Positions 3,835 to 22,937 of a stretch of DNA of 64,000 nt are shown in pieces. The number at the start of each line of letters is the position of its first letter. The first letter of the stretch is position 1. This DNA comes from Nitrospirota bacterium (GTDB taxonomy: Bacteria; Nitrospirota; Thermodesulfovibrionia; Thermodesulfovibrionales; UBA9159): positions 1 to 64,000 of the forward strand of contig CAVOUE010000009.1 of the NCBI GenBank assembly GCA_963699545.1, written 5' to 3'. The position numbers were made by a program, and so were the translations under genes. Below the pieces are notes generated by a model. The model was not told the origin of the DNA. It worked only from the letters and a program-made list of their open reading frames with translations, and did not search any database.

Positions 3835-3849
3835 CGTCGAGATGCTGTT

Positions 3850-4262
3850 ACGCAATGCACATATCGTTCGCCTATGCGCTCCGAAACAATCCTCGTAGCT
3901 TCCCTGATATTGTTAAGGACGGGATCGCTGTCTATTCTCGCCAGATCAAGTTTTTTAAGGTCATCAGCGGAGCTGACAAGCGGTTCGAAATCAGGTGCCC
4001 CTACTTTCCGATAGACGACCCTGCCTCCGAGCGCTCCGGGCAAACAGTTGTTCAGACCGGAGCCTGCATAGACTATGTCCGATCGGATTTTCTCTGCCAC
4101 TTCTATTACAATTTCGCTCATCCTTTTCGGGTTTTTTACAAGCTTTTCCGGTTCCTCGCCATATCGGTGGTAAGTCCATACTCCACCTCCGAAAATGGCT
4201 GCGGGAAGTCTTTCGGTTTCCTTAAAATCAAAAGCTGATAAGACAATCTCTTTCCCGTTCAC
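3850..4262 (-). CDS. MtaA/CmuA (uroporphyrinogen decarboxylase-like) methyltransferase, N-terminal part, truncated at the fold-back centre
   Basis: GGAGGTG RBS before GTG at 4262. The sequence (KEIVLSAFDFKETERLPAAIFGGG...GALGG...LVSSADDLKKLD...IREATRIVSERIG) resembles a URO-D family N-terminal half. ORF-track residues after ~3835 are mirror-image sequence. Confidence 0.7.
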
Positions 4263-4312
4263 TGCCTCACCTCCATGCAAGAGCTTCAACCACGCAAATC
4301 ATTCTGAGTTCC

Positions 4313-6001
4313 CTATGCACCGGCTCCCAGGATAGCCTTAAGGTCTGCTTCCGGTGTGGTAATGGCCATTACGTTGAAGTTTTTCATAAGCACTCCCAGC
4401 ACCCCAGGACTTATGAAGGCCGGCAATGACGGGCCAATGCGGATCCCCTTGATCCCCAGGTGGAAAAGCGAAAGCAGGATGGCCACGGCCTTCTGCTCGT
4501 TCCACGAGAGGACCATGGAAAGGGGGAGATCGTTTACCCCCACGTTGAAGGCCTTTGCAAGAGCTACCGCTATCTCGATAGCAGAATAAGCGTCGTTGCA
4601 CTGGCCCACGTCCAGGAGCCTCGGGATACCGCCGATATCGCCCATTTTCTTGTCGAAGAAACGGAACTTGCCGCATGCGAGAGTCAGCACAACACAGTCC
4701 TTGGGCACTTTTTCGACAAAATCGGCGTAGTAACTCCTTCCCGTTGTTCCACTATCGCAGCCGGCAACAAGAAAGAAATGCCGTATCTTCTTGCTCTTTA
4801 CCGCCTCTATTACCGTGCCCGCAACGCTGAGGACCGCATTCCTTGCCGCGCCGGTCAGCACCGAGCCCAGGTCCTCGTCTTTCGAAAAGCCGGGGAGGGA
4901 AAGGGCCTTCTTTATGAGGGGGGCAAAATCACTCTTTGTGATATACTGCATGCCGGGGCTGCCCACAACGCCAGTCGTGAATACTTTGTCTCTGTAGGAA
5001 TCGAGGGGCTTCTGGAAGCAGTTGGTGGACAGGAGGATAGCCCCGGGAAACTGCTCAAACTCCCTGTTCTGGTTATGCCAGGCGGTCCCGTAATGGCCGT
5101 AAAAGTGAGCGTATTTCTTCAAGGCCGGATAGCCGTGGGTGGGGAGCATCTCTCCATGCGTGTAGACATATATACCCTTTCCCTCGCTCTGCTTGAGTAT
5201 CTCTTCAAGTTCCTTGAGGTCATGTCCGGAAACGAGAATAGCCTTTCCTTTCTTGTGCCCAAGGGGTACCGTGGTAAGGACGGGGTCACCGTAGGTGCCA
5301 GTGTTGCCCTTGTCGAGCAGCTCCATGGCGCGTATGTTTATCTCTCCGCATTTCAGGGCCAACCCCACCCAGGCATCAAGGGAGAGGTCTTTCCTGGTCA
5401 TGGACGCCAGCATTTCGTGGAAAAAAGAGTATATGGCGTCATCGGTCTGTCCCAGGGTCCGGGCATGGCCGGTGTACGCTGCCACGCCCTTTAAGCCGAA
5501 CAGCGTAGTACTCCGGAGGGACAGGACGTCAGGGTCCAAAATGCCGGGCCGATGGAATTGACCTTGCCAGGGCAGGACGCCAGGGTCCAAAGAATCACTC
5601 GAAAAGAGTCCCAGTTTTTGCGCCTGCTTGAGCATTCCCTCACGGCTTTTTTCGGGCCGGAAATTCGCCGGACCCTCCGCAGGGCCTGTTTTTATGCCTG
5701 CAGCCTGAAGTTCTTTCACCAGACCGTCCCTGAGCTCTACGCCCCTTTTTATACATGAAACAAAAAAGTCAGGGTCGAAATTGACGTTTGTCGCGGTCGA
5801 GAAAAGCGCATCCACCGTGTACTCATCGACTTTCCTGTCTATTACCCCGGCTTTCCTGCCCTCAAGGGCAAGCACCGAAAGCCCTTGCAGCAAATATACA
5901 AGCAGGTCCTGAAGGTCCGATACCTCAGGAGTTTTTCCGCAGGCCCCGGTCGTTGTGCATCCTGTTCCATTTTCTGCCCTTTCACACTGATAACAAAACA
6001 T
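4313..6001 (-). CDS. hcp: Hybrid cluster protein (hydroxylamine/NO reductase)
   Basis: MFCYQCE...GCTTTGACGK N-terminal cluster motif; SGHDL, THGEMLP, GQCNDAYS and SWNEQKAV motifs; RBS before ATG 6001. Confidence 0.96.
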   Translation of the reverse strand: MFCYQCERAENGTGCTTTGACGKTPEVSDLQDLLVYLLQGLSVLALEGRKAGVIDRKVDEYTVDALFSTATNVNFDPDFFVSCIKRGVELRDGLVKELQAAGIKTGPAEGPANFRPEKSREGMLKQAQKLGLFSSDSLDPGVLPWQGQFHRPGILDPDVLSLRSTTLFGLKGVAAYTGHARTLGQTDDAIYSFFHEMLASMTRKDLSLDAWVGLALKCGEINIRAMELLDKGNTGTYGDPVLTTVPLGHKKGKAILVSGHDLKELEEILKQSEGKGIYVYTHGEMLPTHGYPALKKYAHFYGHYGTAWHNQNREFEQFPGAILLSTNCFQKPLDSYRDKVFTTGVVGSPGMQYITKSDFAPLIKKALSLPGFSKDEDLGSVLTGAARNAVLSVAGTVIEAVKSKKIRHFFLVAGCDSGTTGRSYYADFVEKVPKDCVVLTLACGKFRFFDKKMGDIGGIPRLLDVGQCNDAYSAIEIAVALAKAFNVGVNDLPLSMVLSWNEQKAVAILLSLFHLGIKGIRIGPSLPAFISPGVLGVLMKNFNVMAITTPEADLKAILGAGA

Positions 6002-6077
6002 CTTACACCTCCTTCTCAAAACCTTTGCCATCTTTTTTGCAGCATATTAGTAGAAGGCCTAATTTTTCTGAAAATGT

Positions 6078-6109
6078 GGTATAGTCGCCTCAGATGAGGC
6101 GACTATACC
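6078..6109. terminator. Perfect 15-bp inverted repeat between the methyltransferase gene and hcp (terminator or stabilising hairpin)
   Basis: GGTATAGTCGCCTCA-GA-TGAGGCGACTATACC, followed on the minus strand by only a short T run (ACATTTT). Confidence 0.55.
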
Positions 6110-6179
6110 TTGAGCTCCGGTTTACTTGTTACTCCCCGTTTTCCTCCCTTTTTCTTTCAATGCCCCAATTACTAAAGGC

Positions 6180-7245
6180 TTACTTGTAAACTCCGTACAG
6201 GGCAGCCGCCTTCACAAGGGCCTTTATGTTCGCGGGCGGAACGCCGTGGTGAATCTCACATCCGGCTGATAACAGAAACCCCCCTCCCGGCATGCCGATA
6301 TCCAGACATTTCTTTGCTGCCGCCATTACGTCATCAGGTGTTCCGAACATGAGGACGGCATCAGACTTTGACACGGCGACGTTCCCTGCAATAGCCACCT
6401 TTTTCCCGTACTTCTCCTTTGCCCATTTCAGGTCAACCGAGTCATGAAACGCCACCGCTATCGGCTGGATTTCATTGACAATCAAATCCAGGAATGGAGT
6501 AGCGTTTTCACACTGGTGGTAAATGTACGGGGCCCCTATGGCGTCACGGATCTTTCTGTGGTACGGGACAACAAACTTGGCATACTGATCAACGCTGACC
6601 GCCTCATCAACCATCCCGCCCTCAACAGTTGCTATCGCAACGGCCCCCGCTTCGAGCATGGCCTTGGCAAAAGCGATGGACGTCTGGGTGCAGAGCTCAA
6701 GCAGTTCATGGATAAAAGAAGGATCTCTCATCATATCCACATAGAGCCGCGTATAGCGACCCTCGAGAACATCGGTGACCGTATCCGGAGGTCCGTTCAC
6801 GAACCCTACGATTGGCACATCGGGATATTTCTTCTTCAGTTCTCCTGATCACCTCCAGGATGACCGGCATCCTTCCGGCCTTGGTGGGGTCGGGGACTGA
6901 AAGTTTGGCAAGATCCGCAGGGGTCTTGACAACCCATTCGCTGACGACACCCATGCGCATACCGCCGCCGCACTTGAGCATGTAATTCAACTTCGAGCCC
7001 AGAGCCTCGCCCTCGACCCGAAAATCGACGGGCAGGAAGAAGTTATCAGCCCCATACTCGGTATACTGCCTCTCTATTGACTGAAAGAGCTTTCTCGGAT
7101 GGTTAAGCCCCTCCTCCCACGTATAGTCCAGGTCCACAAAGTCATGCTGGGCGGCACTCTGGAAATAAAGAGCGACAGGCACCCGGTCCGACTTTTTAAA
7201 TGTGAGGGCTGCAACAACACGTTCTAACGGAGTCATCGAAGACAT
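6180..7245 (-). CDS. MtaA/CmuA-family (URO-D fold) corrinoid methyltransferase; one frameshift near 6840, probably a sequencing error
   Basis: ORFs 6706-7272 and 6180-6818 join into one URO-D family protein (MTPLERVVAAL...VEGEALG...GRMPVILE...YHQCEN...LSAGCEI). The fold-back copy reads through the junction in frame (RRTKKKYPD). Confidence 0.88.
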
Positions 7246-7261
7246 AGTTCTCACCTCCTCC

Positions 7262-7900
7262 TTATTTGCCAACTACTGATGTTGCCCATTTCAGGGCTTC
7301 TTTTTCATTGTCTCCATAGAAATCTGCCTTTATTTTCTTGCAAAATTCCCAGGAGATAGGTCCTCCACCGATGCCCACCTTGACCTTGTCCCGGAGGCCT
7401 TCCTCAACCAGTCCCTCCACAGTCCGTTTCATGCTGAGCATCGTCGGCGTCATGAGGGTCGAAAGCATCAGAAAATCGGGCTTCTCCTCAGCTACCTTCT
7501 GGAGATAGTCTTCGATGGGCACATCGCGTCCCATGTCGATGCAGACAAAACCATTTGCCTCCAGCACTATCCTCACGAGGTTCTTCCCGATGTCATGGAC
7601 ATCGCCTTCGACAACGCCGATCAGCACCTTGCCTCTGCCCTTTGATTCGACCTTCATCTTCGCCTTCAGGATATTAAAGGCCTCATAAAAGGCTTCGGAG
7701 CTGAGAAGCATCTGGGGCAGATAGTACTCCTTTTTATCATACTTTTCGCTGACTATTGCCATAGCCGGGATAAGACCCTTTTCTGTTGTGGTCATGGGGT
7801 CGATCTTCTCATCCAGACTCTGCTTTGCCAGCTTGCCCGCCTGTTCAATGTCGCCTACGACTACGGCGTGGTTAAGTTCTTGGAAGATCTTTTCACTCAT
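7262..7900 (-). CDS. Corrinoid (cobalamin-binding) protein, MtaC/MtbC-like
   Basis: GDVHDIGKNLV B12-binding motif, N-terminal cap domain, SxL and GGG motifs. Confidence 0.95.
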   Translation of the reverse strand: MSEKIFQELNHAVVVGDIEQAGKLAKQSLDEKIDPMTTTEKGLIPAMAIVSEKYDKKEYYLPQMLLSSEAFYEAFNILKAKMKVESKGRGKVLIGVVEGDVHDIGKNLVRIVLEANGFVCIDMGRDVPIEDYLQKVAEEKPDFLMLSTLMTPTMLSMKRTVEGLVEEGLRDKVKVGIGGGPISWEFCKKIKADFYGDNEKEALKWATSVVGK

Positions 7901-7977
7901 TGTGTTCCACCTCCTTAGATATTATGTTTACCATTTACCAACTGCTCATGCTTAGTCTTTCTCTACGTTGTTACCTC

Positions 7978-8748
7978 CTATCTCTTTTCATTCATTAGGC
8001 TCTTGGCTCGGTCAAATGCCCGCTCCAGAATATCGAGCGTCCCCTTCGCCTCCTCTATATAAAAGTCGAAAGACGCGGCGAACTTCTCTGTTTCAGTGCG
8101 CAGCGCTTCACGATTCCCGATGCCTGTGTCTACCATAAGAGCCCTCTTATAATCTGCCTTCTTAAATATCCATTTGACGGTGGAGATATCCGGGCAGTGG
8201 AGTTCCTTAACCAGCAGTGTTTCCCAGTGCTTGAGCCAGCCAGGGGTCACAAACCATGTGCCCGCCTCTTGACGAACCTGATCCAGATACTTCTCGGTCC
8301 CTCCCAGCACCAGGCAAACGCAATCATCGATCGTACTCCCGTCCTGATTTTGGGGCATCACAACAGGACAATTTAAGCCGGCCAATTGTTCTTCGATATT
8401 GAGGAGCACATTGCCGCAAAGTCCATAACCCAGCACAAGGACGTCACTCTTCTCACTCAGAATCCTTGCCTGCTCTGTAACCCCCTCTCTCAGCAAGGAC
8501 TTGTCCATGTGAAGACCGACGCGGAGCGTCATGGCCAGGACTTCGAAAGAGACCTTCGGGTCCGGCAGAAAGTCAGTTACGTTCTTAACTGTTGTGAACC
8601 TGTCACCCATCAACTGGTGAAGGGCCGCAATTATGTCTGTCGCAGGATCGCTCTCAATGAAAGCGACTTTTTCGATATCTGGGTCATGGGAAAGGATATG
8701 TGCCATCTCATCTTCAAGGACTTCGCATATCAAAAGCCCAATCACCAT
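7978..8748 (-). CDS. DUF1638-like protein (corrinoid methyltransferase accessory)
   Basis: C-x-V-L-E-D-E N-terminus; GLH, GYGLCG, DDCV..LGG and WFVTPGW motifs; lies next to the activase. Confidence 0.75.
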   Translation of the reverse strand: MVIGLLICEVLEDEMAHILSHDPDIEKVAFIESDPATDIIAALHQLMGDRFTTVKNVTDFLPDPKVSFEVLAMTLRVGLHMDKSLLREGVTEQARILSEKSDVLVLGYGLCGNVLLNIEEQLAGLNCPVVMPQNQDGSTIDDCVCLVLGGTEKYLDQVRQEAGTWFVTPGWLKHWETLLVKELHCPDISTVKWIFKKADYKRALMVDTGIGNREALRTETEKFAASFDFYIEEAKGTLDILERAFDRAKSLMNEKR

Positions 8749-8749
8749 A

Positions 8750-10384
8750 TCAATCCTCGGTAATCCTCATGGATTCGAGTAGGAAACCGTTAGAGCACTC
8801 TGCTTCACAACGCCGGCAGGCGGTGCCGTTACAGAGGTCGGAACGGATCAGTATCCTCTCTTTCCCATCCACTGTTTCGATATGTGCAGCGGTCTCCGGA
8901 CATTCATTGAGACATTTTCGACAGGCATCACCCAGGCACCCGGCGGGGAAATCAAGAGAGAGCTCGGTGCCCACGCTGTCCACGACAGTCAGGCCCATAG
9001 GACCGATTTCGATAATATCTCTCTTTGCGATGCGAATCAACTCCGGCGACGGGTGCGGCTGAGGAAAACCCTGAATGCCGTAGAGGGCAAGCATGCCGTT
9101 CATCATATGCGCCGGCATTCCCTCATCCCAGTAAGCCAGTTCACAGACATAGGCATTCTTAAAAACCTTCGAGTCGGCAAACATAATGTGCTTGGCGGTG
9201 ATCGTATCGGCCACTTTCTGGAGCATGTCCAGGAGCTCAGGACGTCTGACAATTTCAGTGGCGAGACACAGGCTTGTGTTCCCGGCCTGTATAATCCTGC
9301 CGGCTGAATTGGGAATAAGACCGACTTTCCGGGCCTTTAACGGGTCTACGTAAGTGCCTGATGCTCCTGTCATGTAAACAGCTTCCAGTTTCGGCAGCTT
9401 TATGCCGACCTCTTCGACGAGTGTCATATGCCCGGCTCGAATGGCGCCGATGGCCTTCCCCGCCTCTCTTACATCCTTTTCCGTCAGGAAGATTCCTTCG
9501 GTCATGTGCAGTTTTCCGTCGGCGGTGCTGATCTTTGGCGGGCCTACCAATCCTGCATCAATCCCTTCGGCGATCGCGGCAACAACACCCGTACCGGTAA
9601 TGCCTTTCGGCAGGTAGTTCGGGTCTCCCTCCAGAACGATCACCCCGTCTTTTGCACGGATGCTCGAACTGGAACGTGAGATGAGATCTGAATCGAGCAC
9701 ACGAATGTCCCAGACTCCGTCGGCAGAGATTATATCTGCAATGGCGCCCGGCTGAGCCAACATGCCGCAGGACACATGCTGTCCCTCCATGGCAGGTCCT
9801 GCCGCGGCCGAGCCTGTCAATATCTCGCCGCCTACCTTGATGGCCATTTCCGCGTTGGTACCATAATCCGTGACAATGGCCACCTCATCCTTATCAAGGA
9901 GGCCGGTAATATACATCATCGCTAAAGCATCTGCCCCTATCTCATGCCTGACTGCCGGCGGCACAAACAGCTCCGCTTTGTCGGATAGTTCTAACCCCAC
10001 ATCTGCGGCTCGAATGACACGCGCCGGCCGTTGGACAGGCTCAGTGATTCCCATCTTCTTGAGTCCCCGTTTACCGGCAAAGGCCAAATCTCTAATTTCC
10101 ATCCTTTGAAAGAGGGAAAGCTGGATAGGATTTCCGCAAATCGATACACGTCCCACTTCTTTCAGATCGATTGGAAGTGCGCGGATGACTTTGTGCACCG
10201 CATTGAGAATCAACTTGTGAGTAAGGTCATATCCCAGTTCAAGACAGAAGTGGAGATGGTCCATGACATTTGCACCCGGCAAAGGATGGCGGGTCGATAT
10301 AGCAGTCGCGATAACCCTGCCGTCTTCTCCAATGGCTTGTGCTCTAAAGCCGCTCGTCCCTAAATCTAAAGATAAGCCCTTCAT
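8750..10384 (-). CDS. ATP-dependent corrinoid reductive activase, RamA type (ASKHA fold plus C-terminal ferredoxin)
   Basis: DLGTSGFRAQ, HPLPGANVMDHLHF, HEIGADALAM, DYGTNAEM and GSAAAGPA motifs; C-terminal Cys clusters CLGDACRKC..ECPE and CNGTACRRCE. Confidence 0.92.
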   Translation of the reverse strand: MKGLSLDLGTSGFRAQAIGEDGRVIATAISTRHPLPGANVMDHLHFCLELGYDLTHKLILNAVHKVIRALPIDLKEVGRVSICGNPIQLSLFQRMEIRDLAFAGKRGLKKMGITEPVQRPARVIRAADVGLELSDKAELFVPPAVRHEIGADALAMMYITGLLDKDEVAIVTDYGTNAEMAIKVGGEILTGSAAAGPAMEGQHVSCGMLAQPGAIADIISADGVWDIRVLDSDLISRSSSSIRAKDGVIVLEGDPNYLPKGITGTGVVAAIAEGIDAGLVGPPKISTADGKLHMTEGIFLTEKDVREAGKAIGAIRAGHMTLVEEVGIKLPKLEAVYMTGASGTYVDPLKARKVGLIPNSAGRIIQAGNTSLCLATEIVRRPELLDMLQKVADTITAKHIMFADSKVFKNAYVCELAYWDEGMPAHMMNGMLALYGIQGFPQPHPSPELIRIAKRDIIEIGPMGLTVVDSVGTELSLDFPAGCLGDACRKCLNECPETAAHIETVDGKERILIRSDLCNGTACRRCEAECSNGFLLESMRITED

Positions 10385-10387
10385 TTC

Positions 10388-11437
10388 TTAAACCCACACC
10401 TTCTTAAATCCATATTTCTTACCGGTTTCAACCATAGCCTGCAGGTTAATTGTAGGTGTCTGGGGGGGAATGCCACAGCATGTGGTGAGGAGGTCGGTTC
10501 CCTTATTGATAATCTCCATAACAGCTTTTTCAACATCTTCAGGCCCGTCAAACAGTAAGACCCCATTCACATTAACGTTTCCGCAGACGGCGGTTTTTTC
10601 TCCAACAGCGGCTTTGGCATCAGCCATATCTACCAGAGAATCAATGGAGATGCCCGGCGCCACCTCCGCCATCCTCGTCAGAATCAGATCATTTTTCCCG
10701 CATATATGAAGAATTGTCGGCACTGAAATGTTTTCGGTGATGCTCCGGGAGAATGGCTTGGCAAACTCGTCAAATTGTTTCGGGCTGATCAAATCGCAGC
10801 TGGCCGTGGCATCGACGATCACGACAACATCTGCCCCTGCCTCGACCTGGGCTTGAGCATACTTAACGCAGACCTTTTGAGCTTTCTTAATAAGCTCTAT
10901 GGCAGCTGCCGGCTTCCTCATCAATTCGCGCATAAAAGGATCCACACCCCTGACCTGACCCGCCACCATGAAAGGGCCCACTACCATCGAGATGACCGGT
11001 ATGGTATCAGGAACTCTCTTTTTGAGGAGCTTAATCGCCTTGAGGACCACCGGCATTCTGCCGTCTTTATAAGGGTCCGGATCCTTCACCCTGCTGAAGT
11101 CGCCCGTTTCCGATATGGCAGGCTCCTTTACAGGGGGTTGAATATCCAATCCCTTGTTGCGGCCTGAGTGATACTCGAGCACACATCCCATAGCTTCGGC
11201 CTCTATATTGATATCAAAGGGAACGCGGACGCTCTCAAAGCCAATAACCCGATGAGCCTCATAAGACAGGGTAGCCATAAGTTCAGAGTCGGAGTGTACT
11301 TCCGGCCAATAAGCACCACATGATTTCATCAATTCTATCGTCCCCGTATGTAAAGGCTGGGCTACAGGTATCCGGTCTACTGGCTGACGGGCCAAGGTGG
11401 CAAGAAGTCTTTCTTTTGGTGACATGGTCTCTTTCAT
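10388..11437 (-). CDS. MtaA/MtbA/MtsA-like methylcobamide methyltransferase (MT2, URO-D fold)
   Basis: VRVPFD..EAEAMG, GRMPVV, Zn-binding LHICG and a C-terminal Cys (TCCGI). Confidence 0.92.
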   Translation of the reverse strand: MKETMSPKERLLATLARQPVDRIPVAQPLHTGTIELMKSCGAYWPEVHSDSELMATLSYEAHRVIGFESVRVPFDINIEAEAMGCVLEYHSGRNKGLDIQPPVKEPAISETGDFSRVKDPDPYKDGRMPVVLKAIKLLKKRVPDTIPVISMVVGPFMVAGQVRGVDPFMRELMRKPAAAIELIKKAQKVCVKYAQAQVEAGADVVVIVDATASCDLISPKQFDEFAKPFSRSITENISVPTILHICGKNDLILTRMAEVAPGISIDSLVDMADAKAAVGEKTAVCGNVNVNGVLLFDGPEDVEKAVMEIINKGTDLLTTCCGIPPQTPTINLQAMVETGKKYGFKKVWV

Positions 11438-11547
11438 GATTCCTCCCTTTCAGGGTTCCGGCTCCTCCCCATCAGAAGATCGAAGTCGCGTTATGGAACC
11501 CCCTTATGTTTTTGTCTAGGATTCTTGATTGATCAGCAAAAAGATGA

Positions 11548-14243: not shown

Positions 14244-14293
14244 TTGTTCCTCCTTTGTATAGAGGATCCTCTTATTAATTGCCATCGTCTTTC

Positions 14294-15100: not shown

Positions 15101-15126
15101 CTTTCCTCCCACTTCAAAATTGATTA

Positions 15127-15993
15127 TTAAAACCCCGCCTTGTCCAGAACCAACGGAACTTTGTCCTCCCAGTGAATGGTATAAATGTGAACCCCCTGGG
15201 AGAGGTTCCGCAAATCCTTGATCAGACGAGCCGCTACCTCGATACTTGTATTCACGGGGTTGGTGCTTTTTTCAAATTCATCAATGATGAACTTCGGAAT
15301 ATTAATCCCGGGAACATTTTTGTTCATAAAATGGGCCATCTTTGCAGATTTTAATAGAAAGACACCGGCAAGAACCGGAACATGTAAATGCCTTGTTTTT
15401 TCCACAAAGGATGTAAAGTCCTCGATGTCGAAAACAGGTTGAGTCTGGAAAAAATCCGCTCCTGCCGCAACCTTTTTTTCCATCTTGATGAGTTGAGGTT
15501 CCAGTGGAGTAGAGGAAGGGTTCACGGCTGCCCCCAGGCAAAATGACGGAGAGCCTTTGAGCCGCTTGCCGGACATGTCAGCGCCGCACTCCAGCCCTCT
15601 GGCCACTTTCAAGAGCTGAACCGATTCAATATCGAAGACTCCTTTTGCACCGGGGTGGTCCCCGAGGGATTGATGGTCTCCGGAAAGGACAAGAACATTT
15701 TCTATCCCGAGTGCTGAGGCGCCTAACAGGTCGGATTGCAGGGCCAGCCGGTTCCTGTCTCGGCATACCATCTGGAGTATCGGTTCAAGTCCCTCCTCTT
15801 TTATCAAGTAGGATGCGGCAAGCGAACTGAGGCTCATTACCGCACTCTGATTATCTGCCGCATTCACACCGTCCACCCTCCCCCGCAAGGGGTGCAATAT
15901 TTTCAACTCTGCCCTTATATCCGTTCCCTTCGGCGGGAGAAAATCCGTCGTAATGACAAATCTTCCTGATTTCAAAACGTCCTTCAGTGCCAT
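15127..15993 (-). CDS. metF: Methylenetetrahydrofolate reductase (second copy)
   Basis: PPKG, CRDRNRLALQS, GD and FFQTQPVFD motifs. Confidence 0.9.
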   Translation of the reverse strand: MALKDVLKSGRFVITTDFLPPKGTDIRAELKILHPLRGRVDGVNAADNQSAVMSLSSLAASYLIKEEGLEPILQMVCRDRNRLALQSDLLGASALGIENVLVLSGDHQSLGDHPGAKGVFDIESVQLLKVARGLECGADMSGKRLKGSPSFCLGAAVNPSSTPLEPQLIKMEKKVAAGADFFQTQPVFDIEDFTSFVEKTRHLHVPVLAGVFLLKSAKMAHFMNKNVPGINIPKFIIDEFEKSTNPVNTSIEVAARLIKDLRNLSQGVHIYTIHWEDKVPLVLDKAGF

Positions 15994-15994
15994 A

Positions 15995-16897
15995 CTACAC
16001 TCTGGCTCCTGCTGTCCGGCTTTCTCTTCCGGCAATTTCTGCTTCGTCCAGGATGTAGGGAATCCGGTCGTGCCACGGCGTGGTCATCATAATATGGACC
16101 CCCGAACAGATATGTGAGAGTGCCCTTACGATCCTGACGGTTATTTCAATGCTTCTCCTCTCGGCGTCTCCTTTTTCGAGCTCCTGTATGATCGGTTCGG
16201 GAACGAGAACGCCTGGGATGTTCTTATTCATGAAGCGCGCAGAGGCCGCGGATTTCAGGATGAACACCCCGGCCAGAACCGGGATATCAAGGAAGGCCAC
16301 ACTTTCCAGGAACCTGGCATAACTATCGACGTCGAAGATGGGCTGAGTCTGCAGAAATTCCGCTCCTGCCTCAGCCTTTAGACGTGCCTTTTTGATCTCT
16401 TCCAGCGGTTTTACCGCACCAGGGTCAAGGGCGGCTCCGAGACAAAAGTTCGGTACGCCATCAAGTCGTTTTCCGCCCATGTCAAAACCCTTTTCAAGAT
16501 TCCTCGCTACCGCCAGGAGTTGAACAGTATCAAGGTCAAAGACGGATTTGGTGTCTGGATTGTCCGAGCCTGTCGCCTCGTCGCCTCTCAGACACAGTAT
16601 GTTCCTTACTCCTAAGGCATAGGCGCTCAGCATCTCTGATTGAAGGCTGATCCTGTTTCTGTCACGGCAGGTGATCTGCATGATGGGCTCTATCCCCATT
16701 TCTTTGACCTTCACGGACACCGCGAGGGAGCCCATCCTCATATTCGCTCCGGGCATATCGGTGACATTTATCGCATCAACCCTTCCCTTCAAAAGTTCAA
16801 TACCCTTCAGACTCTTGTAGACGGCCGTGCCTTTAGGCGGAATTACGTCCGATGTTACAACAAACTCTCCTGATCTCAGCTTTTCTCTGAATGTCAT
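15995..16897 (-). CDS. metF: Methylenetetrahydrofolate reductase (first copy)
   Basis: PPKG, TCRDRNRISLQS, LRGD and LQTQPIFD motifs. Confidence 0.9.
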   Translation of the reverse strand: MTFREKLRSGEFVVTSDVIPPKGTAVYKSLKGIELLKGRVDAINVTDMPGANMRMGSLAVSVKVKEMGIEPIMQITCRDRNRISLQSEMLSAYALGVRNILCLRGDEATGSDNPDTKSVFDLDTVQLLAVARNLEKGFDMGGKRLDGVPNFCLGAALDPGAVKPLEEIKKARLKAEAGAEFLQTQPIFDVDSYARFLESVAFLDIPVLAGVFILKSAASARFMNKNIPGVLVPEPIIQELEKGDAERRSIEITVRIVRALSHICSGVHIMMTTPWHDRIPYILDEAEIAGRESRTAGARV

Positions 16898-16908
16898 CTT
16901 TCAACCTC

Positions 16909-17781
16909 TCATCTTTCCGGAATAACCCACTTCTTGCTTCTCTGTATGTTCTTAAGTCTCATTAACTGGTCCTCGGCGATCGTGAAGGTATGTTCGGGTG
17001 CCGGGAATTTGAACGTTTCTACCTCATCCTTGAAGGCCTTGACGGCTTTCGTAGTCTCCTCCCAAAGGTTCACATATTTTTTCACAAATTTCGGTACGAA
17101 GTGTTCAAAGAGTCCAATCATATCCTGGGTCACCAAGGCCTGACCGTCACAGTGAAGACCGGCCCCTATTCCTATCACCGGGATCTTCAGCGTTTCGGTG
17201 ATGATACCGGCGACGCTAGGAGGCAAACATTCTATAGAAAGGGCAAAAGCACCGGCATTCTCACATTCCATAGCCAGATCAATGAGCTCTGCCGCCTCTT
17301 CCGCTGTTTTTCCCATCACGGCAAACTTTCCATACCTGGACACAAACTGGCGCGTAAGGCCGATATGAACCATGGTGGGGATTCCGGACTCCACTATAGC
17401 CCTGGCGATCTTTACCACTTCCGGCCCTCCTTCGATCTCAACGCCATCGGCACCTCCCTCCTTGACAAATCGCCGGGCATTTCTCCTGGCATCGTCTTCA
17501 GTGTTGTAATCCATGAAAGGCATGCACGACAGGAGGAATGCCCTTTCCACGGCATTGGAGACAGCCTTGGTATGGTGAAGCATCTCCTCCATCGTGACCG
17601 GGAGAGTATTCTTGTACCCCAAGCCGGTCATGCCCAGAGCATCGCTCACGAAGATGATGTCGATGCCAGCCTGGTCGATAATCCTGGCAAAGGGATAATC
17701 GTAAGCGGTCAACATGCTTATCTGTTCACCCTTTTTCTTTTTGGCACTGAGGGAAGAAACACTCACTTTATTTTTTTCCAT
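16909..17781 (-). CDS. panB: 3-methyl-2-oxobutanoate hydroxymethyltransferase family (PanB-like)
   Basis: MLTAYDY, HIGLT, IGIGAG..CDGQ.LV..D and PKFVKKY motifs. The usual VGDS is VSDA and the usual VKLEGG is VEIEGG. Confidence 0.88.
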   Translation of the reverse strand: MEKNKVSVSSLSAKKKKGEQISMLTAYDYPFARIIDQAGIDIIFVSDALGMTGLGYKNTLPVTMEEMLHHTKAVSNAVERAFLLSCMPFMDYNTEDDARRNARRFVKEGGADGVEIEGGPEVVKIARAIVESGIPTMVHIGLTRQFVSRYGKFAVMGKTAEEAAELIDLAMECENAGAFALSIECLPPSVAGIITETLKIPVIGIGAGLHCDGQALVTQDMIGLFEHFVPKFVKKYVNLWEETTKAVKAFKDEVETFKFPAPEHTFTIAEDQLMRLKNIQRSKKWVIPER

Positions 17782-17797
17782 TTTCTTTCTCCGTCTC

Positions 17798-18355
17798 CTA
17801 TAGAAGTACGCTGCTCAAGCTTTCATGGGGCGCAGGTATTATGGTTGTCATAGTCAGCATGCCGGACTCTTCGATGGCAGCCGTTGCAGCACCAAGTGCC
17901 GCTTCGACTGAATACAGTTCGCCGGTCAGAGTAACGAAGGCCTTCCCGCCCAGGCCTCTCGCCAGACGTATATCTATCAAGGTTATGTTTGCCGCCTTTG
18001 CAGCCGCATCCGCTGCGATAATGGTCGAGGCTATCGAAAAGGTCTCGATGACGCCGAGAGACACAACTTCCTTCACCTCGGTAGTTCCGCGGATGGCAGA
18101 AAAGATGCTTTCATGGATATTGGGAATAAGGAGATGATCGATAACCTGATCTCCCCCGATCTGAAGACCTACCTCCATCGAGGATTCGACCGGGGCGACC
18201 AAGCCTCCGATGACAACGCTGTATTTCCCGGGACAGGTAGGCGTCGCCTCAAGTAACTCTATCGGTGCCTTCTTCATCATAAAATCACACGTCATGATTC
18301 CGCGTGCAATGCTTCTGAATTCGATGAGGCCCAGGGCCGGCCGCATTTCTACCAT
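17798..18355 (-). CDS. pduT: BMC tandem-domain shell protein, PduT-like (pore Cys, Fe-S binding)
   Basis: Two BMC domains; TCPGKY motif; RLARGLGGK; IPAPH. Confidence 0.9.
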   Translation of the reverse strand: MVEMRPALGLIEFRSIARGIMTCDFMMKKAPIELLEATPTCPGKYSVVIGGLVAPVESSMEVGLQIGGDQVIDHLLIPNIHESIFSAIRGTTEVKEVVSLGVIETFSIASTIIAADAAAKAANITLIDIRLARGLGGKAFVTLTGELYSVEAALGAATAAIEESGMLTMTTIIPAPHESLSSVLL

Positions 18356-18376
18356 CCGACTCTACCATCTCGTCCA

Positions 18377-19710
18377 TTACGCTGCTTCGATAACAATCGC
18401 ATCTCCGTCAATCCTCCGCACCCTGCCCGAAACCGATGCGTGGTATTTCGCCCCAAGATTTCCGTCAGGGATATCGGCGATCAGATCGCCCTGCCGCATG
18501 ATGTCCCCCGTTTCAACTACGGGAACAGCCGGAGCGCCAATGTGTTGCCGCAAGCCTATTTTTACCTGTTTAACGGCATAAGACGTTCTCCTTAAGCGGT
18601 GCAACCTCTTTATACTTTTCGAGCCCCAGCCGTTTCAGCAGCCGTTCTGCCGGCACTTTGCGGTGGTCCATCTCCTGTCTCGCTTTCGCTTTGTCTTTGG
18701 ATGGTTCATGCCTGTATCTTTTTCTGGAGAGCTCAGCCCTGATTTCCATGTTTACCTGCCGGGGGGAGAGACCCTGGACACAGGCATAGGTCTCGCACAG
18801 GCCGCAGCCGGAGCAAAGTGCTGCCGAAGTGATGACATTCGGAGGAGCGACATTACCAAAATCGAGGGATCTCATTATCTTGTGAGGTTGAAGATTATGG
18901 CCCAGGAGATATCGGGGACAGAGTTCGGTACAATAACTACACTGGGTACAGGCGGATTTGATCAGGCGGATATTTCGGTTTAATGGTCTGGTCTTTAAGG
19001 CGATCAGGGGATGGTGCTTCGGAAGCACGAGAAGCATCCCCAGGGTTTTATTGACCGTACTTGAAACATCGAACGTGACCCTGCCCATCATGGGGCCTCC
19101 GGTAATCATCGCATATTCATCGACCGTTGCACCACCGGCCATTGCAATCACGTCACCCAAGGCCGTCCCGATCGGAACCCTGAAAGTCGCCGGATATCTT
19201 ACCTCACCCAAAACTGAAATATGCCGATGAGTGACAGGAATCCCTTTCTCGGCTTCGCAGATATTAAAAAGAGTTCCGACATTCTGTACAACCACACCTT
19301 CGGAAAGAGGGATATTCCCCTCGGGAATCACCCTTCCCGTCACCTCATGGACCAATACGAACTCGTCTCCCGGCAGGATAAAAATCCCGGAGCAAAAACA
19401 GCTCGATCTTCTCCTTATTACCCGAGATTGCCCTCGAAAGACTCTCGATGGAGGTTTTATATTTTTTCTTCAGGGCCACTATCCCTTTTGAAGCGCCGGT
19501 GGAGGCCATGAGGAGCAAAAGACCGGCGACGATCTTATCGGCGTATTTCATCATGAGCTGCTGGTCGGCCTGCGCCAGGGGTTCACATTCCGCCCCGTTG
19601 GCAATCACCATCTCCGCTTTTGATCCGGACTTGATGTGACTCGGGAATCCTGCGCCTCCCGCACCGATTATCCCGGCGTCTCTGACTCTTCTCACAAGTT
19701 CCTTCGTCAT
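18377..19710 (-). CDS. pduS: PduS-like cobalamin reductase (RnfC/SLBB flavoprotein with 2x[4Fe-4S]); two frameshifts near 19370 and 18580
   Basis: Three consecutive ORFs: GAGGAGFP..ANGAECEP; GGPMMG..CTQCSYCTELCP..CSGCGLC; and LRQHIGAPA..YHAS. Removing one G near 19370 restores YPAGDEFVL. Confidence 0.88.
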
Positions 19711-19746
19711 GACAAAACCTGCCTGTCAGCTCCTTCAGTAGTCAAA

Positions 19747-21336
19747 TTAGAATATCCGCAGATAACCCGAGAGCACGCAGCGCCGCTCCCTGGTGAAATG
19801 GCGTGCAGAGGTCATCCCCTCTCCGGAAAAACTCGCAATAGTTAAGGACGCACACCCTTCACCTTCGATCCCGAGTCCGTCATAACAGGGCCCGTTCTTT
19901 ACCAGCAGCGTACAGTCCGCTGCCTTAGCCATCTTTGTAAGGGTGTCCACGCTCAGGGAGTGAATTATGGCAGTATGCTTGAAACCATGCTCAGCCCTGA
20001 CCGCCATCCCAATGGCCTGATCTACGTCCCTGGCCCTTACCATTGGCAGCACAGGCATCATCAACTCGCTCCAGACAAAGGGATGCTCATAGTCCGTTTC
20101 GGCCATTACGAGTTTTATATCGTCGCCGACCTGAACGCCTATCTCGGCTAAAATTACCCTGGCATCCCTTCCTATGAAATGTATGTTCGGAACTCCGGCT
20201 TTGCCTGGGCCCCGGTTTTCACTGAGAAGAACTTTCTCCAACCGCTTAAGCTGCCATTGGCTGAGCTCATAAGCACCGAGCTCTTTCATATGAAATTTGA
20301 GCTCATCAGCCACCGCCTCGACGACGATAAGTTCCTTTTCGGTGATGCACGGTATGTTGTTGTCAAAACTCGCACCGTCCACGACGTCCTGCGCCGCTTT
20401 CCTGATATCCACTGTCTCGTCAACGACCACGGGTGGATTTCCCGGGCCTGCTGCTATCACCTTCTTGCCATGCTTCATCGCTTCCCGTACTACCCTCATC
20501 CCACCCGTGACAACAAGGAGCCTCACATCGGGATGGTCCATAAGTGTCTGGGCATTGGCAATTGAGGCCTCGCTGATCGACGTGAGAAGGTTGAATGGGC
20601 CTCCGGCCGACCGTATCGCTTTATTCAGCAATCTCATGGTGGCCAGAGAGACTTCCCGGGCCGAGGGATGGGGGCTGAAAACCACGCTGTTGCCAGCAGC
20701 CACCATCCCGATTGCGTTACAGGCAACAGTAGCAGAGGGATTCGTAACTGGCGTTACCGCTGCGATCACGCCCCAGGGCGCACGCTCGCCTAGGGTGAGG
20801 CCGTAATCGCCGGTATAAGCAACCGTAGATACGTCTTCAACGCCGGGAGTCTTTTCCGCTATCAACTGGTGCTTGATGCTCTTGCTGTCGAGCCTGCCCA
20901 TCTTGGTCTCGTTTACGGCCATGACAGACAGGACGTCGCCGTTCTTCATGAGCGCCTCCCTCATGGCGGCGATTATCTTTTTCCTCGTACTCAAAGAAAC
21001 GTCTTTCAGTTCCAACTGGGCCTTTTTTGCCGCGGCTACAGCTCCGTCGATGGTAGCAAATACTCCCCCTTCCTCCCCGTCGGGAGCGGAAAGAACATGG
21101 ACATCGCCAGACTGCTGAACCAAAGGCGCGGCTGCCCCTCCGGCTGGCAGCACAGAGTCCTTTTCCTTGCCGGCATTCAGAGGCGCATCATCGGAGGTTA
21201 AGTTCTTCCGCTTCTTCCATACGAAATCTCCCGATCTGGTTACGTGAGAGGTGCTGTGCACGTTGGACTTAAAGGTAATTCTGTCCAGCGCCTTTTCCAC
21301 AAGAGACTCTACGGGACTACCCACATCATCAGCCAT
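19747..21336 (-). CDS. CoA-acylating aldehyde dehydrogenase (EutE/PduP family) with N-terminal extension
   Basis: TPVTNP, FSPHP, TGG, AGPGNPP, catalytic NNIPCITEK, ELMMP and FTRERRC motifs. Confidence 0.93.
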   Translation of the reverse strand: MADDVGSPVESLVEKALDRITFKSNVHSTSHVTRSGDFVWKKRKNLTSDDAPLNAGKEKDSVLPAGGAAAPLVQQSGDVHVLSAPDGEEGGVFATIDGAVAAAKKAQLELKDVSLSTRKKIIAAMREALMKNGDVLSVMAVNETKMGRLDSKSIKHQLIAEKTPGVEDVSTVAYTGDYGLTLGERAPWGVIAAVTPVTNPSATVACNAIGMVAAGNSVVFSPHPSAREVSLATMRLLNKAIRSAGGPFNLLTSISEASIANAQTLMDHPDVRLLVVTGGMRVVREAMKHGKKVIAAGPGNPPVVVDETVDIRKAAQDVVDGASFDNNIPCITEKELIVVEAVADELKFHMKELGAYELSQWQLKRLEKVLLSENRGPGKAGVPNIHFIGRDARVILAEIGVQVGDDIKLVMAETDYEHPFVWSELMMPVLPMVRARDVDQAIGMAVRAEHGFKHTAIIHSLSVDTLTKMAKAADCTLLVKNGPCYDGLGIEGEGCASLTIASFSGEGMTSARHFTRERRCVLSGYLRIF

Positions 21337-21350
21337 TTTTCACCTCCCTC

Positions 21351-21671
21351 TCACAATGTGACAGGCGGAGCCTGCCAGATGGGAACTTTCTGGAATTTCG
21401 CCTCGCCCGAGAGTTCCACAGTGTCCACAATACCCACGATAACCGCGTCCACCGGCCTGTCCTTGGTGATTCCGGTCTGCCGGGCAGAACTCTCCACAGT
21501 GTAAAGGACCACATCATTCGTTCCCGCTCCCACGGCATCCACGGCTATTTCGTATCCTCCGCACGGCTCCCCTTTGTAGTCCACCTTCTCGACTATCAGA
21601 AACTTGGATCCCACCATGGTATGGACCCTCTGGTCACACACGACCGTTCCTACAACCTTTCCTAAGAGCAT
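21351..21671 (-). CDS. BMC pentameric vertex protein (EutN/CcmL)
   Basis: GKVVGTVV, AVDAVGAG and PVDAVIVGIVD motifs. Confidence 0.95.
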   Translation of the reverse strand: MLLGKVVGTVVCDQRVHTMVGSKFLIVEKVDYKGEPCGGYEIAVDAVGAGTNDVVLYTVESSARQTGITKDRPVDAVIVGIVDTVELSGEAKFQKVPIWQAPPVTL

Positions 21672-21701
21672 CGGTTCGCTCCTTTCATTCTCATGTTCAG
21701 T

Positions 21702-22064
21702 CTATTTTATTTTCTTTGATTCATTGAGCTCAATGGACTTTTGCTCGGCCTGATCGATCATCGCCCAGTAGTCCCTGCCCCTCCCCAGCGGCAGTGTGAT
21801 GTCCACATTATCGTGCGGCCGCGGGATCAAATGAACACTCACCACATCGCCTACCTTTTCGGCCGCAATGCCTCCTGCCTCAAGAGCGGCCCTTACCGCT
21901 GCCACGTCACCCCTGACAATCGTGGTCACATAACCGCCGCCAATCTTTTCATAATTCACCAGTTCGACCTTGGCAGCCTTCACCATCGCATCAGCAGCCT
22001 CCACCATTGCGGCAAATCCCCTTGTTTCGATCATTCCCAAAGCTTCCGTCGTACGCATTCTCAT
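21702..22064 (-). CDS. BMC hexameric shell protein (PduA/EutM/CcmK-like) with C-terminal extension
   Basis: [25 protein letters not shown] and IPRPH motifs. Confidence 0.96.
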
Positions 22065-22092
22065 TCTCCTTTTCTTACCTGTTCCAGGTTAT

Positions 22093-22182
22093 TTATGCCC
22101 GCTCTCCAGAACGGGGTACATTGTCTCTGCCTGTCACCGACTCAAGAGCACGCCAAACCGTTTCCATCCCTGCCTCTATCAC
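22093..22182 (-). pseudogene. Duplicated C-terminal segment of the BMC-T(dp) gene in a shifted frame
   Basis: Translates VIEAGMETVWRALESVTGRDNVPRSGERA*, against the BMC-T C-terminus DVEVGMDAVHRALESVTGRDNSPAKKE*. Confidence 0.7.
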
Positions 22183-22937
22183 TCTTTTTTCGCCGGTGAA
22201 TTGTCCCTGCCCGTCACCGACTCAAGAGCTCGGTGAACTGCATCCATACCAACCTCTACGTCCCTCTCTTCGCCGCAGAAATAGAGCCTGCCGAAGGCGC
22301 CGAAATTCCTGACCTCTATCAATTTGATATTAGTCGCTTTTTCAGCTTCATTGGCTGCGAAGTTGGCATACCCGGCCGGATGTACCTCAAGAATGTAGAG
22401 CGTCTCTCCAGGCAAGATGTAGTTTGCACTCCTGCTAGTGCGGTTTATCAGCTGACACTGATAGTCGTGGACTCTCCTTATCAATTGGCTTGTCAATATT
22501 CTCGGCTTAAGCCTGTCCATCTCTGTTTTCCCCAGGGCCTCAAGAATCGCATGTCCGGATTGCAGCACCGAGCCCTGATCGCCATGATGGAACTCAAGCA
22601 TTCCAAACGCCCTCTCAACCACCTGTGCGCCAGGCATCACGTCTGTCGCTTTGACAGCGATATCCGTCAGTCTGTTAATCTCGATCCCCGGTGCTATCTC
22701 AACAACTATCGATGCCTGCCCCACTATAGGAAGATATCCTCGTGCAGTTGCTGCAACTTGCGATGCCAGCTGCGGCTGCATCTGGTCGAGAAAGATATAT
22801 ACCCTTAACTCTATGGCACCTCCTCCTGCCTTCGCGGTACCTATGGCGGACTGATATTTCGGTATCTCCGCAGCACCCTTCGTACTTGATTCAGTGATCT
22901 TTATGCCGGACGTGGGATGTGACTTCGTAATTGCCAT
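22179..22937 (-). CDS. BMC tandem-domain permuted shell protein BMC-T(dp), CcmP/CsoS1D-like
   Basis: LRVYIFLDQMQPQLA, EIAPG, VVERAFG, ANEAEKA and GAFGRL motifs of gated double-stacking trimers. Confidence 0.92.
   Translation of the reverse strand: MAITKSHPTSGIKITESSTKGAAEIPKYQSAIGTAKAGGGAIELRVYIFLDQMQPQLASQVAATARGYLPIVGQASIVVEIAPGIEINRLTDIAVKATDVMPGAQVVERAFGMLEFHHGDQGSVLQSGHAILEALGKTEMDRLKPRILTSQLIRRVHDYQCQLINRTSRSANYILPGETLYILEVHPAGYANFAANEAEKATNIKLIEVRNFGAFGRLYFCGEERDVEVGMDAVHRALESVTGRDNSPAKKE

Follow-up and report, generated by a model that had tools for sequence, protein, structure and literature searches.

Can a bacterial microcompartment (BMC) be devoted to the one-carbon (C1) chemistry of folates and corrinoids? 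The question is raised by a locus in a metagenome-assembled genome (MAG) of an uncultured, anaerobic Nitrospirota bacterium (GCA_963699545.1; 3.04 Mb, 13 contigs). The stretch analysed, called here the window, comprises the initial 64 kb of contig CAVOUE010000009.1 (C9:1-64000). It contains a single co-directional run of closely spaced genes, from 22937 down to 3851 on the minus strand, which encodes shell proteins, a CoA-acylating aldehyde dehydrogenase (ALDH), a PanB-like protein and enzymes of corrinoid-dependent methyl transfer and tetrahydrofolate (THF) metabolism. To our knowledge, the characterised microcompartments either fix CO2 or degrade C2–C3 or sugar-derived substrates via acetaldehyde, propionaldehyde or lactaldehyde. 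We are highly confident that this run of BMC and C1 genes is a real conserved unit. From comparison of its sequences, we propose, with a probability of about 0.45, that the locus encodes a genuine, horizontally spread metabolosome-type BMC whose conserved cargo would be a THF/corrinoid C1 module, the PanB-like enzyme linking methylene-THF to a C1 unit at the aldehyde level.

The open reading frames (ORFs) of the window were annotated with Pfam, NCBIfam and a sequence search of the PDB (phmmer); the genes and their matches are reported in table 1. The original prediction, made from the letters of the window, had described a metabolosome-type BMC locus encoded together with a corrinoid/folate C1 pathway. 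This description is borne out by the annotation, and every gene that had been listed was recovered at its coordinates on the minus strand. The list was accurate as to the presence of PduS, but this gene is in three pieces, the third URO-D gene is frameshifted and the last is cut by a fold-back of the contig. There are three classes of shell protein, BMC-H (PF00936), BMC-T (tandem PF00936) and BMC-P (PF03319). The PduT and PanB-like genes are separated by 16 nt and the PanB-like and MetF genes by 11 nt; what looks like a 214-nt gap behind PduS is occupied by its RnfC_N domain. The full set of first methyltransferase (MT1), corrinoid protein, second methyltransferase (MT2) and activase is present together in the operon according to Pfam, with MT2 above the Pfam cut-off.

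The ALDH starts with a helix resembling an encapsulation peptide, followed by a linker of about 75 residues, and its catalytic Cys330 is invariant. Its N-terminus, VESLVEKALDRI, aligns with the PduP N-terminus of a Clostridium PDU locus (L007), and by this likeness the helix is likely to be an encapsulation peptide. The stretch TPTCPGKY visible in PduT is presumably the Fe–S ligand site.

The same association of genes was found in other genomes. With the ALDH as query, three more contigs from Nitrospirota MAGs were retrieved, with the same gene order and ALDHs 88–91% identical to that of the window. The PanB-like query returned 80 genome loci. Nine of them form a variant clade (62–95% identity) and seven of the nine have shell genes in the flank: L013–L016 from Nitrospirota, L018 from Thermoleophilia, and L019 and L020 from Bacillota. 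The other 71 loci encode canonical PanB (at most 56% identity) and carry none of the window's other genes. In L018 the order is BMC-T, BMC-H, BMC-P, ALDH, PduT, URO-D, RACo, DUF1638, corrinoid protein and URO-D, followed by an insertion sequence element, the PanB-like gene, a pterin methyltransferase, a cyclodeaminase-like gene and AOR. The near-identical L019 and L020 start with a GAF histidine kinase and an MtrH-like methyltransferase and continue with BMC-T, BMC-H, BMC-P, ALDH, PduT, PanB-like, MetF, AOR, a second BMC-T and BMC-H, corrinoid protein, URO-D, a response regulator, URO-D, RACo and DUF1638. The PduT homologue of L020 (L020:6095-7084) is extended at its N-terminus by about 140 residues that match no Pfam family, and there is no PduS in that locus.

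A scan of metagenome contigs added 10 members of the clade, nine of them with PduT, shell or ALDH genes beside the PanB-like and MetF genes; the tenth contig begins where the shell genes would be. This set includes a divergent lineage (L108, ALDH 65% identical) and a rearranged locus (L106), and the gene order is reshuffled between lineages (L106, L018 and L020). As controls, 80 BMC loci with ALDHs 47–58% identical to that of the window were analysed: none contains PanB, MetF, a corrinoid protein, a pterin methyltransferase or DUF1638, and URO-D, RACo, Fhs and AOR occur once each. A quick maximum-likelihood tree of 90 ALDHs places the nine sequences of the C1 type within one marked set of 11 (SH-aLRT 96), apart from the PDU clade; the other two members of the set belong to a PTAC/class II aldolase BMC (L201). 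Conserved synteny had been suggested as a check of the prediction, and the linkage of shell and C1 genes is indeed conserved in MAGs of three phyla (Nitrospirota, Thermoleophilia and Bacillota). BMC-T was found in only one of 401 sampled Nitrospirota genomes, the source MAG itself, and in one of 18 other genomes of its family. The shell is therefore rare within Nitrospirota, so that the unit looks horizontally acquired as a whole.

Some members of the clade have a different make-up. A Nitrospiraceae MAG (L016:1068-8037) carries BMC-T followed directly by PanB-like, two MetF genes and a pterin methyltransferase, without BMC-H, BMC-P, ALDH, PduS or PduT; it looks like a reduced version of the locus, possibly a decaying one. 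A shell-less sister cluster in a delta-proteobacterial MAG (L017:1531-15290) contains a MEDS (DcmR-type) regulator, two corrinoid proteins, two URO-D methyltransferases, a pterin methyltransferase, two DUF1638 proteins, an Fe–S protein, PanB-like, MetF, RACo with a 2Fe–2S domain and a ClC chloride channel. In the palsa_1316 MAG, PanB-like, MetF and URO-D genes occur as a second set on another contig (L021:869-2921).

The state of the contig might suggest that shell and C1 genes were joined in this one chimeric long-read assembly and nowhere else. Bases 1–3850 of the window are an inverted, error-rich copy of 3851–7863, with 45 inverted-repeat pairs of 79–100% identity (for example 1–159 with 7705–7863, and 3747–3834 with 3869–3956) and an axis near 3851. 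They are a fold-back chimera at the contig end, an assembly artefact lying outside the locus; the ORFs within them, which include plus-strand Prismane fragments, are artefacts of the fold-back. There are also several frameshifts. However, the PduT–PanB–MetF junctions and others recur in independently assembled short-read MAGs and in metagenome contigs, which refutes this explanation and leaves it a negligible probability. PduS is broken by two frameshifts into three pieces, over which its domains (Complex1_51K, SLBB, Fer4_17 and RnfC_N) are spread, and its orthologue in a relative (L005) is one uninterrupted ORF of 442 aa. The third URO-D gene (6180–7272) consists of two ORFs spanning profile positions 1–133 and 137–343; the orthologue in another relative (L099) is unbroken, with 356 aa. 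Because these orthologues are intact and further genes of the assembly are broken, both frameshifted genes probably reflect indel errors of long reads. Elsewhere in the assembly, the molybdopterin subunit of a formate dehydrogenase (40128–42539) is also broken, for which a selenocysteine codon is possibly the alternative explanation, and CdhC of the source MAG (G000:C4:198822-199293) is interrupted by one TGA.

The gene that best distinguishes the locus encodes the PanB-like enzyme. It gives full-length matches to PanB of Escherichia coli (1m3u) and Mycobacterium tuberculosis (1oy0), with values of 9e-55 to 1e-57. It is not the sole housekeeping copy: it lies in the C1/shell operon and not in a pantothenate operon, and a second PanB with a higher score (397.9 bits versus 325.7) is encoded on contig C5 of the source MAG. 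For comparison of the active sites, 10 clade members from four phyla were aligned with 70 canonical PanBs, the numbering being mapped via the match to 1m3u. E. coli residues D84 and K112 are replaced by Cys and Glu in all 10 clade members, and are Asp and Lys in all 70 canonical PanBs. In the numbering of the window, the changes are Cys86 (D84), Glu115 (K112), Ser46 (the Gly of the GDS motif, which becomes SDA) and Arg144 (P141); these four positions are 100% or at least 96% conserved in the 70 canonical PanBs. The equivalents of D45, E114, H136 and E181 are retained, and Arg or Lys is gained at positions 144 and 152. We take D84 of the E. coli enzyme to be a Mg2+ ligand and K112 to be a contact of the 2-oxoacid. 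An altered site of this kind occurs in only four of the best 150 representatives from a library of 1.84 billion proteins.

A second type of shell locus was reached through one of the metagenome matches (L112), in which a PanB of 48% identity, having Thr and His at the positions of D84 and K112, is encoded next to shell genes. The follow-up returned 71 genome loci, of which 52 share a shell-locus order (L261–L307, L313, L326, L327, L329 and L330; e.g. L261:6823-11621). Most are from Chloroflexota/Anaerolineae, and one delta-proteobacterial MAG and one Ahniella MAG are included. First comes a protein of the KGPDC/HPS family (3-keto-L-gulonate-6-P decarboxylase/hexulose-phosphate synthase) whose C-terminus is extended by about 140 aa; it is followed by BMC-H, BMC-T(dp), a protein of 123 aa that matches no Pfam family, BMC-P, BMC-H, PanB-like, SDR and a sugar ABC transporter. 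Thr or Ser and His occupy the two positions in 49 of 49 scorable shell-linked copies. Among the shell-less matches, 18 of 19 are canonical and the exception lies at a contig edge. This locus may be the 'BUF' type of a published catalogue. Hexulose-phosphate synthase was considered as a clue to formaldehyde in this locus; the clue is weak, the protein being nearer to KGPDC.

In a quick tree, all variant PanB-like proteins form one marked clade (SH-aLRT 98), within which the C1 type and the Chloroflexota type are separate branches. The PanB-like protein is thus a member of a monophyletic subfamily, which has an altered active site and is associated with shell genes. Since this association holds in two cargo contexts, it would be a compartment enzyme and probably a signature enzyme. 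This is the strongest argument in favour of our proposal, and we consider it somewhat probable that the PanB-like enzyme is the core or signature enzyme of the compartment, a role for which the original prediction had not picked it out.

No classical signature enzyme was found to compete for this role. The searches for absent genes in the source genome cover a MAG that is 86.94% complete with 5.08% contamination. Within it there is no match to PTAC (PF06130), and none was found in the C1-type loci by tblastn with the PTAC of L007. No PduCDE was detected in the source MAG by tblastn with queries from L007, which was confirmed as a PDU locus and served as positive control. Neither glycyl-radical enzymes nor EutB were found in three Nitrospirota genomes (the source MAG, G000, and G416 and G417). 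An alcohol dehydrogenase is not among the annotated operon genes; the rest of the genome was not searched for one. It was also considered that the truncation of the contig at the fold-back had removed a signature enzyme. In L099 the fourth URO-D gene is the last of the operon and the next genes are unrelated; in the palsa_1316 MAG the region 3' of the shell operon (L100:578-5176) encodes URO-D, DUF2284, a corrinoid protein, a MetV-like DUF5981 protein and URO-D. There is no signature enzyme among these downstream genes, and the possibility was rejected for both relatives. The statement of the original prediction that a classical signature enzyme and PTAC are missing therefore holds in the source MAG and, beyond the fold-back point, in these two relatives.

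The two MetF paralogues of the operon are 50% identical to each other, and paralogue a is 39% identical to a MetF on contig C6 that adjoins MetV. The operon Fhs is 36% identical to the canonical Fhs at 42596–44359 (584 versus 696 bits). Given that the PanB of contig C5, the MetV–MetF pair of C6 and the canonical Fhs are also present in the source MAG, the operon PanB, MetF and Fhs are, by sequence comparison, additional and divergent versions of housekeeping genes, which is what would be expected of a parallel enzyme set operating in a space of its own. Beside the canonical Fhs there is an NAD-type formate dehydrogenase (the pair spanning 37629–44359, with a NuoF-like subunit at 38090–39865 and the molybdopterin subunit at 40128–42539); lying directly upstream of Fhs and 20 kb from the shell operon, it represents the housekeeping entry to the methyl branch of the Wood–Ljungdahl pathway. 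Of five genomes with the locus, four encode the acetyl-CoA synthase subunit CdhC. The source MAG has at least three other clusters of corrinoid methyltransferase genes (URO-D, MtrH-like, corrinoid protein and RACo), on C3 at 823–877 kb, C1 at 24–31 kb and C10 at 71–76 kb, which fits an anaerobe that scavenges methyl groups. AOR lies inside the loci L020 and L018. An AOR was also sought in the Nitrospirota locus; the sole AOR-family matches in G000, G416 and G417 sit on other contigs.

On our reading, the URO-D/MtaA methyltransferases, the corrinoid protein and the pterin methyltransferase would pass methyl groups to THF, with methoxylated aromatics, methylated thiols and halomethanes as candidate donors. 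MetF would then oxidise methyl-THF to methylene-THF. The PanB-like enzyme, which we propose no longer makes ketopantoate because the residues corresponding to D84 and K112 are lost, would interconvert methylene-THF and a free C1 unit at the aldehyde level, most likely formaldehyde. The shell would confine this unit, and the acylating ALDH would oxidise the C1 aldehyde to a CoA thioester, a task that AOR may perform instead in the Bacillota and Thermoleophilia versions. PduS and PduT could serve in electron transfer through the shell or in keeping the corrinoid in its reduced state. According to metabolic-engineering work, acylating ALDHs of the BMC type accept formaldehyde/formyl-CoA. The original prediction had suggested that the ALDH could form formyl-CoA, with Fhs contributing an ATP-linked step; the ALDH may do so, whereas Fhs belongs to the Nitrospirota version of the locus only. 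That formaldehyde itself is the confined species is put forward tentatively, at well under even odds. More speculative, and in our judgement doubtful, is the idea of a natural 'formaldehyde organelle' in which a PanB-derived, THF-dependent formaldehyde lyase/synthase would serve as signature enzyme in two or more types of microcompartment. The first, in anaerobic Nitrospirota, Thermoleophilia and Bacillota, would burn methyl groups supplied by B12 methyltransferases and the second would be that of some 50 Chloroflexota species; in both, the shell would retain free formaldehyde passing between methylene-THF and an enzyme that oxidises or fixes it.

A number of observations weigh against this proposal. 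The loci L017 and L021 have PanB-like, MetF and methyltransferase genes and no shell genes within 10 kb, and their PanB-like copies are nested inside the shell-linked clade; L016 keeps BMC-T alone of the shell genes. The C1 module can thus work without a shell. PduS, Fhs and Hcp are lineage-specific, Fhs occurring only in the Nitrospirota version of the locus, and most Nitrospirota copies are close kin and represent one lineage. The trees are quick searches, with L018 on a long branch, and the roles assigned to D84 and K112 are taken over from the E. coli structure. A recognisable targeting peptide is present on the ALDH only: no convincing terminal extension of the encapsulation type was found on MetF, Fhs or PanB-like, and the C-terminal helix of the PanB-like protein occurs in some canonical PanBs as well. 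FolD (PF02882) was not found in the source MAG, which could have pointed to a bypass of this enzyme, but it is present in all five other locus-bearing genomes; the bypass was rejected, and the locus does not replace the normal route of methylene-THF oxidation. As to the Chloroflexota loci, tblastn with the window's ALDH and folate proteins found no homologue beside the shell genes, apart from one distant ALDH match (25%, L297), and the neighbouring enzyme resembles KGPDC more closely than hexulose-phosphate synthase. This fits a role in sugar-acid aldol cleavage as well as one in formaldehyde metabolism.

The more serious of the other explanations, which we consider doubtful, is that shell and C1 genes are simply co-regulated neighbours. 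The shell would enclose only the ALDH, with PduS and PduT, and this enzyme would act on an aldehyde made elsewhere, such as acetaldehyde or a vanillin-like aromatic aldehyde derived from lignin; the methyltransferases and folate enzymes would be cytosolic members of the same catabolic regulon that demethylate the same substrates. The restriction of the encapsulation peptide to the ALDH and the C1 modules found without a shell (L017 and L021) or with BMC-T only (L016) agree with this, as does the assignment of the AORs in L018 and L020 to the broad-spectrum AOR type rather than the FOR type. The other corrinoid methyltransferase clusters of the genome are likewise shell-less, and the layout of URO-D, corrinoid protein, pterin/MtrH methyltransferase and activase is that of bacterial O-demethylase systems, as far as the available text of PMC8630106 describes them. 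Yet a substrate that is already an aldehyde has no obvious need of a shell, and such an arrangement leaves unexplained why in every case the shell genes are followed by a remodelled paralogue of PanB, why the PanB subfamily tracks shells in a second, methyltransferase-free type of locus, and why there are extra copies of MetF and Fhs. Chemistry at a C–C bond, in place of the release of formaldehyde, appears unlikely to us. The PanB-like enzyme would use methylene-THF as hydroxymethyl donor for a new enolisable acceptor, or cleave such a compound, and the confined species would be a hydroxy-aldehyde or hydroxy-oxoacid handled by the ALDH, the organelle being a C1-assimilating or sugar-acid-cleaving aldolase compartment. 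Canonical PanB is an aldolase-type enzyme that transfers a hydroxymethyl group, which speaks for such a role; the variant retains the equivalents of D45, E114, H136 and E181, and its Arg/Lys residues at 144 and 152 could bind a new acidic substrate. It is also consistent with the KGPDC-like enzyme, SDR and sugar ABC transporter beside the Chloroflexota branch and with the class II aldolase BMC (L201) to which the nearest outgroup ALDHs belong. However, no decarboxylase, transaminase or kinase for such a product is conserved in the C1-type loci, and the replaced Asp and Lys are presumably the very residues that hold Mg2+ and the 2-oxoacid.

Catabolism of chloromethane or dichloromethane (DCM) is less probable still. 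Here a volatile, toxic substrate, or a chloromethyl or hydroxymethyl intermediate, would be confined and would enter THF at the methylene level, MetF and Fhs representing the two branches of a methylene-THF disproportionation. The make-up of the methyltransferase module resembles the mec cassette, as far as the available text of the preprint of Murdoch et al. describes it; two of the methyltransferases exceed the cut-off of the MtaA/CmuA subfamily, and the PanB-like and MetF genes of the shell-less L017 are accompanied by a ClC chloride channel and a MEDS regulator (DcmR type). Against this, the annotated operon genes of the window include neither a chloride channel nor an antiporter (L018 and L020 were not searched for one), and MEDS regulators, according to the description of the domain, also control ordinary methylotrophic genes. 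In the available text of two DCM papers the word 'hydroxymethyltransferase' does not appear, nor do 'microcompartment' and 'formaldehyde' in that of one of them.

Table 1. Features of the BMC/C1 locus and of its upstream flank in the window, in the direction of transcription.
Feature	Coordinates	Strand	Matches and remarks
GAF-domain protein, 752 aa, putative regulator	24199..26457	-	GAF_2, GAF; partial match to a transcriptional regulator model (NCBIfam)
Best sigma-70-like promoter match 5' of BMC-T(dp)	23387..23415	-	TTGACA-17-TAACAT, 10/12; weak
BMC-T(dp), double-stacking trimer type	22179..22937	-	Pfam BMC 24.6 bits; phmmer versus PDB: HO-5816 6.3e-71, CcmP, CsoS1D
BMC-H hexamer shell protein	21702..22064	-	PF00936, 101.9 bits
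BMC-P pentamer (vertex) protein	21351..21671	-	PF03319, 91.4 bits
CoA-acylating ALDH, PduP/EutE type	19747..21336	-	NF011927 629.7 bits (cut-off 403); BMC ALDH structures 5jfl, 4c3s, 6gvs
PduS-like flavin/Fe-S oxidoreductase, frameshifted	18377..19710	-	Complex1_51K, SLBB, Fer4_17, RnfC_N
PduT-like tandem-domain BMC-T	17798..18355	-	Two BMC domains, 141.4 bits
PanB-like enzyme	16909..17781	-	Pfam PF02548 325.7 bits; TIGR00222 294.9 bits (cut-off 207.55)
MetF paralogue a (methylene-THF reductase domain)	15995..16897	-	Pfam, NCBIfam
MetF paralogue b	15127..16035	-	Pfam, NCBIfam; true start likely near 15993
Pterin-binding methyl-THF:corrinoid methyltransferase (MeTr/AcsE-like)	14294..15112	-	Pterin_bind 60.7 bits; PRK07535 256.4 bits, just under cut-off 259
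MtaA/CmuA-family methyltransferase a	13206..14285	-	TIGR01463 264.6 bits (cut-off 235.4); MtaA 4ay7 4e-54
Fhs, formate-THF ligase, divergent second copy	11548..13206	-	Pfam 584 bits
MtaA/CmuA-family methyltransferase b	10388..11437	-	NCBIfam 308 bits; 4ay7 2e-58
RACo/RamA-type reductive activator of corrinoid proteins	8750..10384	-	RACo_C_ter 212.8 bits, Raco_middle
DUF1638 protein	7978..8748	-	Pfam; found also in L018, L020, L017
Corrinoid (B12-binding) protein	7262..7900	-	B12-binding, B12-binding_2
URO-D-family methyltransferase c, frameshifted	6180..7272	-	Pfam
Hcp, hybrid-cluster protein (Prismane family)	4313..6031	-	Pfam
URO-D-family methyltransferase d, cut at ~3851 by fold-back	3851..4289	-	Pfam; first ~146 residues real

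A 69–83% identical copy of the GAF-domain protein adjoins the locus in L004–L006, L016 and L108. A scan of the region for promoters and terminators gave site counts not above those of shuffled sequence. A search for sequencing runs listed eight of the DNA type, with small shares (0.05–0.19), and none of RNA. The 146-aa ORF at 22901–23341 has no Pfam match and no counterpart in L004–L006 among tblastn matches of at least 60 bits. BMC-T(dp) has a conserved N-terminal extension of 41 residues, its residues 1–252 being 92–95% identical in the relatives. DUF1638 proteins often accompany corrinoid methyltransferase systems. Hcp is found in the window and in L099 only, being absent from L100, and is therefore considered peripheral. 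The orthologue of the fourth URO-D protein in L099 has 347 aa, of which residues 1–146 match positions 4280–3843 of the window. A large duplication at 31–50 kb had been suspected from equal ORF lengths; a repeat search found none.

A shell tied to folate/B12 C1 metabolism would add new chemistry to microcompartments, and one of the many 'incomplete core' loci would gain a function. It would also reveal a neofunctionalised PanB subfamily, whose members are labelled as ordinary panB by current pipelines because they pass TIGR00222. If formaldehyde is the intermediate, the locus would offer a natural template for engineered compartments that assimilate methanol, formate or formaldehyde, and would bear on the processing of lignin methoxyl groups and halomethanes by anaerobes of peat and wetlands.

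Comparison with known systems places the locus among the metabolosomes. With the PDU locus of Clostridium (L007) it shares the order ALDH–PduS–PduT (49, 42 and 45% identity), the helix at the N-terminus of the ALDH/PduP, and BMC-H and BMC-P. Unlike that locus, it lacks PduCDE, PduGH, PduL (PTAC) and PduO, its shell includes BMC-T(dp), its cargo consists of folate/corrinoid C1 enzymes and its ALDH belongs to a separate clade. The class II aldolase (PF00596) BMC L201, which is PVM-like or GRM5-like by gene content, has BMC-H, BMC-P, ALDH, PduS and PduT in like order and an ALDH of the same marked set, but it differs by the presence of PTAC and a sugar-phosphate aldolase and by the absence of all C1 genes.

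According to its main text, the catalogue of Sutter et al. 2021 (PMC8217296) contains many metabolosomes that lack a signature enzyme, MIC2–7 among them. Like the MIC (incomplete core) loci described there, the locus of the window has an AldDh (pfam00171) and shell genes, no obvious signature enzyme and no PTAC; it differs in that a candidate signature enzyme, the PanB-like protein, and a pathway are proposed for it. The words 'methyltransferase', 'folate', 'corrinoid', 'formate' and 'Nitrospir' do not occur in that main text (Supplementary Data 2 lay outside this check), and the locus type may carry an uninterpreted 'MIC' label in Supplementary Data 2; judging by their age, the records of two relatives may have been part of the catalogued data. 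The original prediction had not recognised the combination as a characterised class of BMC. In agreement with this, a search of the literature, which did not cover that supplement, found no locus joining a microcompartment with corrinoid methyltransferases, PanB/ketopantoate, MetF, O-demethylases or Nitrospirota.

The cargo recalls the O-demethylase systems (Mtv, Odm and Mto) and the mec cassette, which, in the available text of the papers, likewise comprise an MtaA/CmuA-related MT1, a corrinoid protein, a pterin/MtrH MT2, an ATP-dependent reductive activase and a DUF accessory protein; the mec cassette (Murdoch et al. preprint) is described as an MtaA/CmuA methyltransferase, a pterin/MtrH methyltransferase, further methyltransferases, a corrinoid protein, RACo and a protein with an unknown domain. 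This likeness is one of parts list and not of sequence identity, and, unlike the window, the same text makes no mention of shell genes or of a PanB-like protein. Unlike canonical PanB, the PanB-like enzyme lacks Asp and Lys at the positions of D84 and K112, although it scores above the cut-offs of the PanB profiles. Set beside these systems, with its chemistry offered as a hypothesis and its existence and conservation as a unit being solid, the locus would be a metabolosome with a new cargo and a new candidate signature enzyme.

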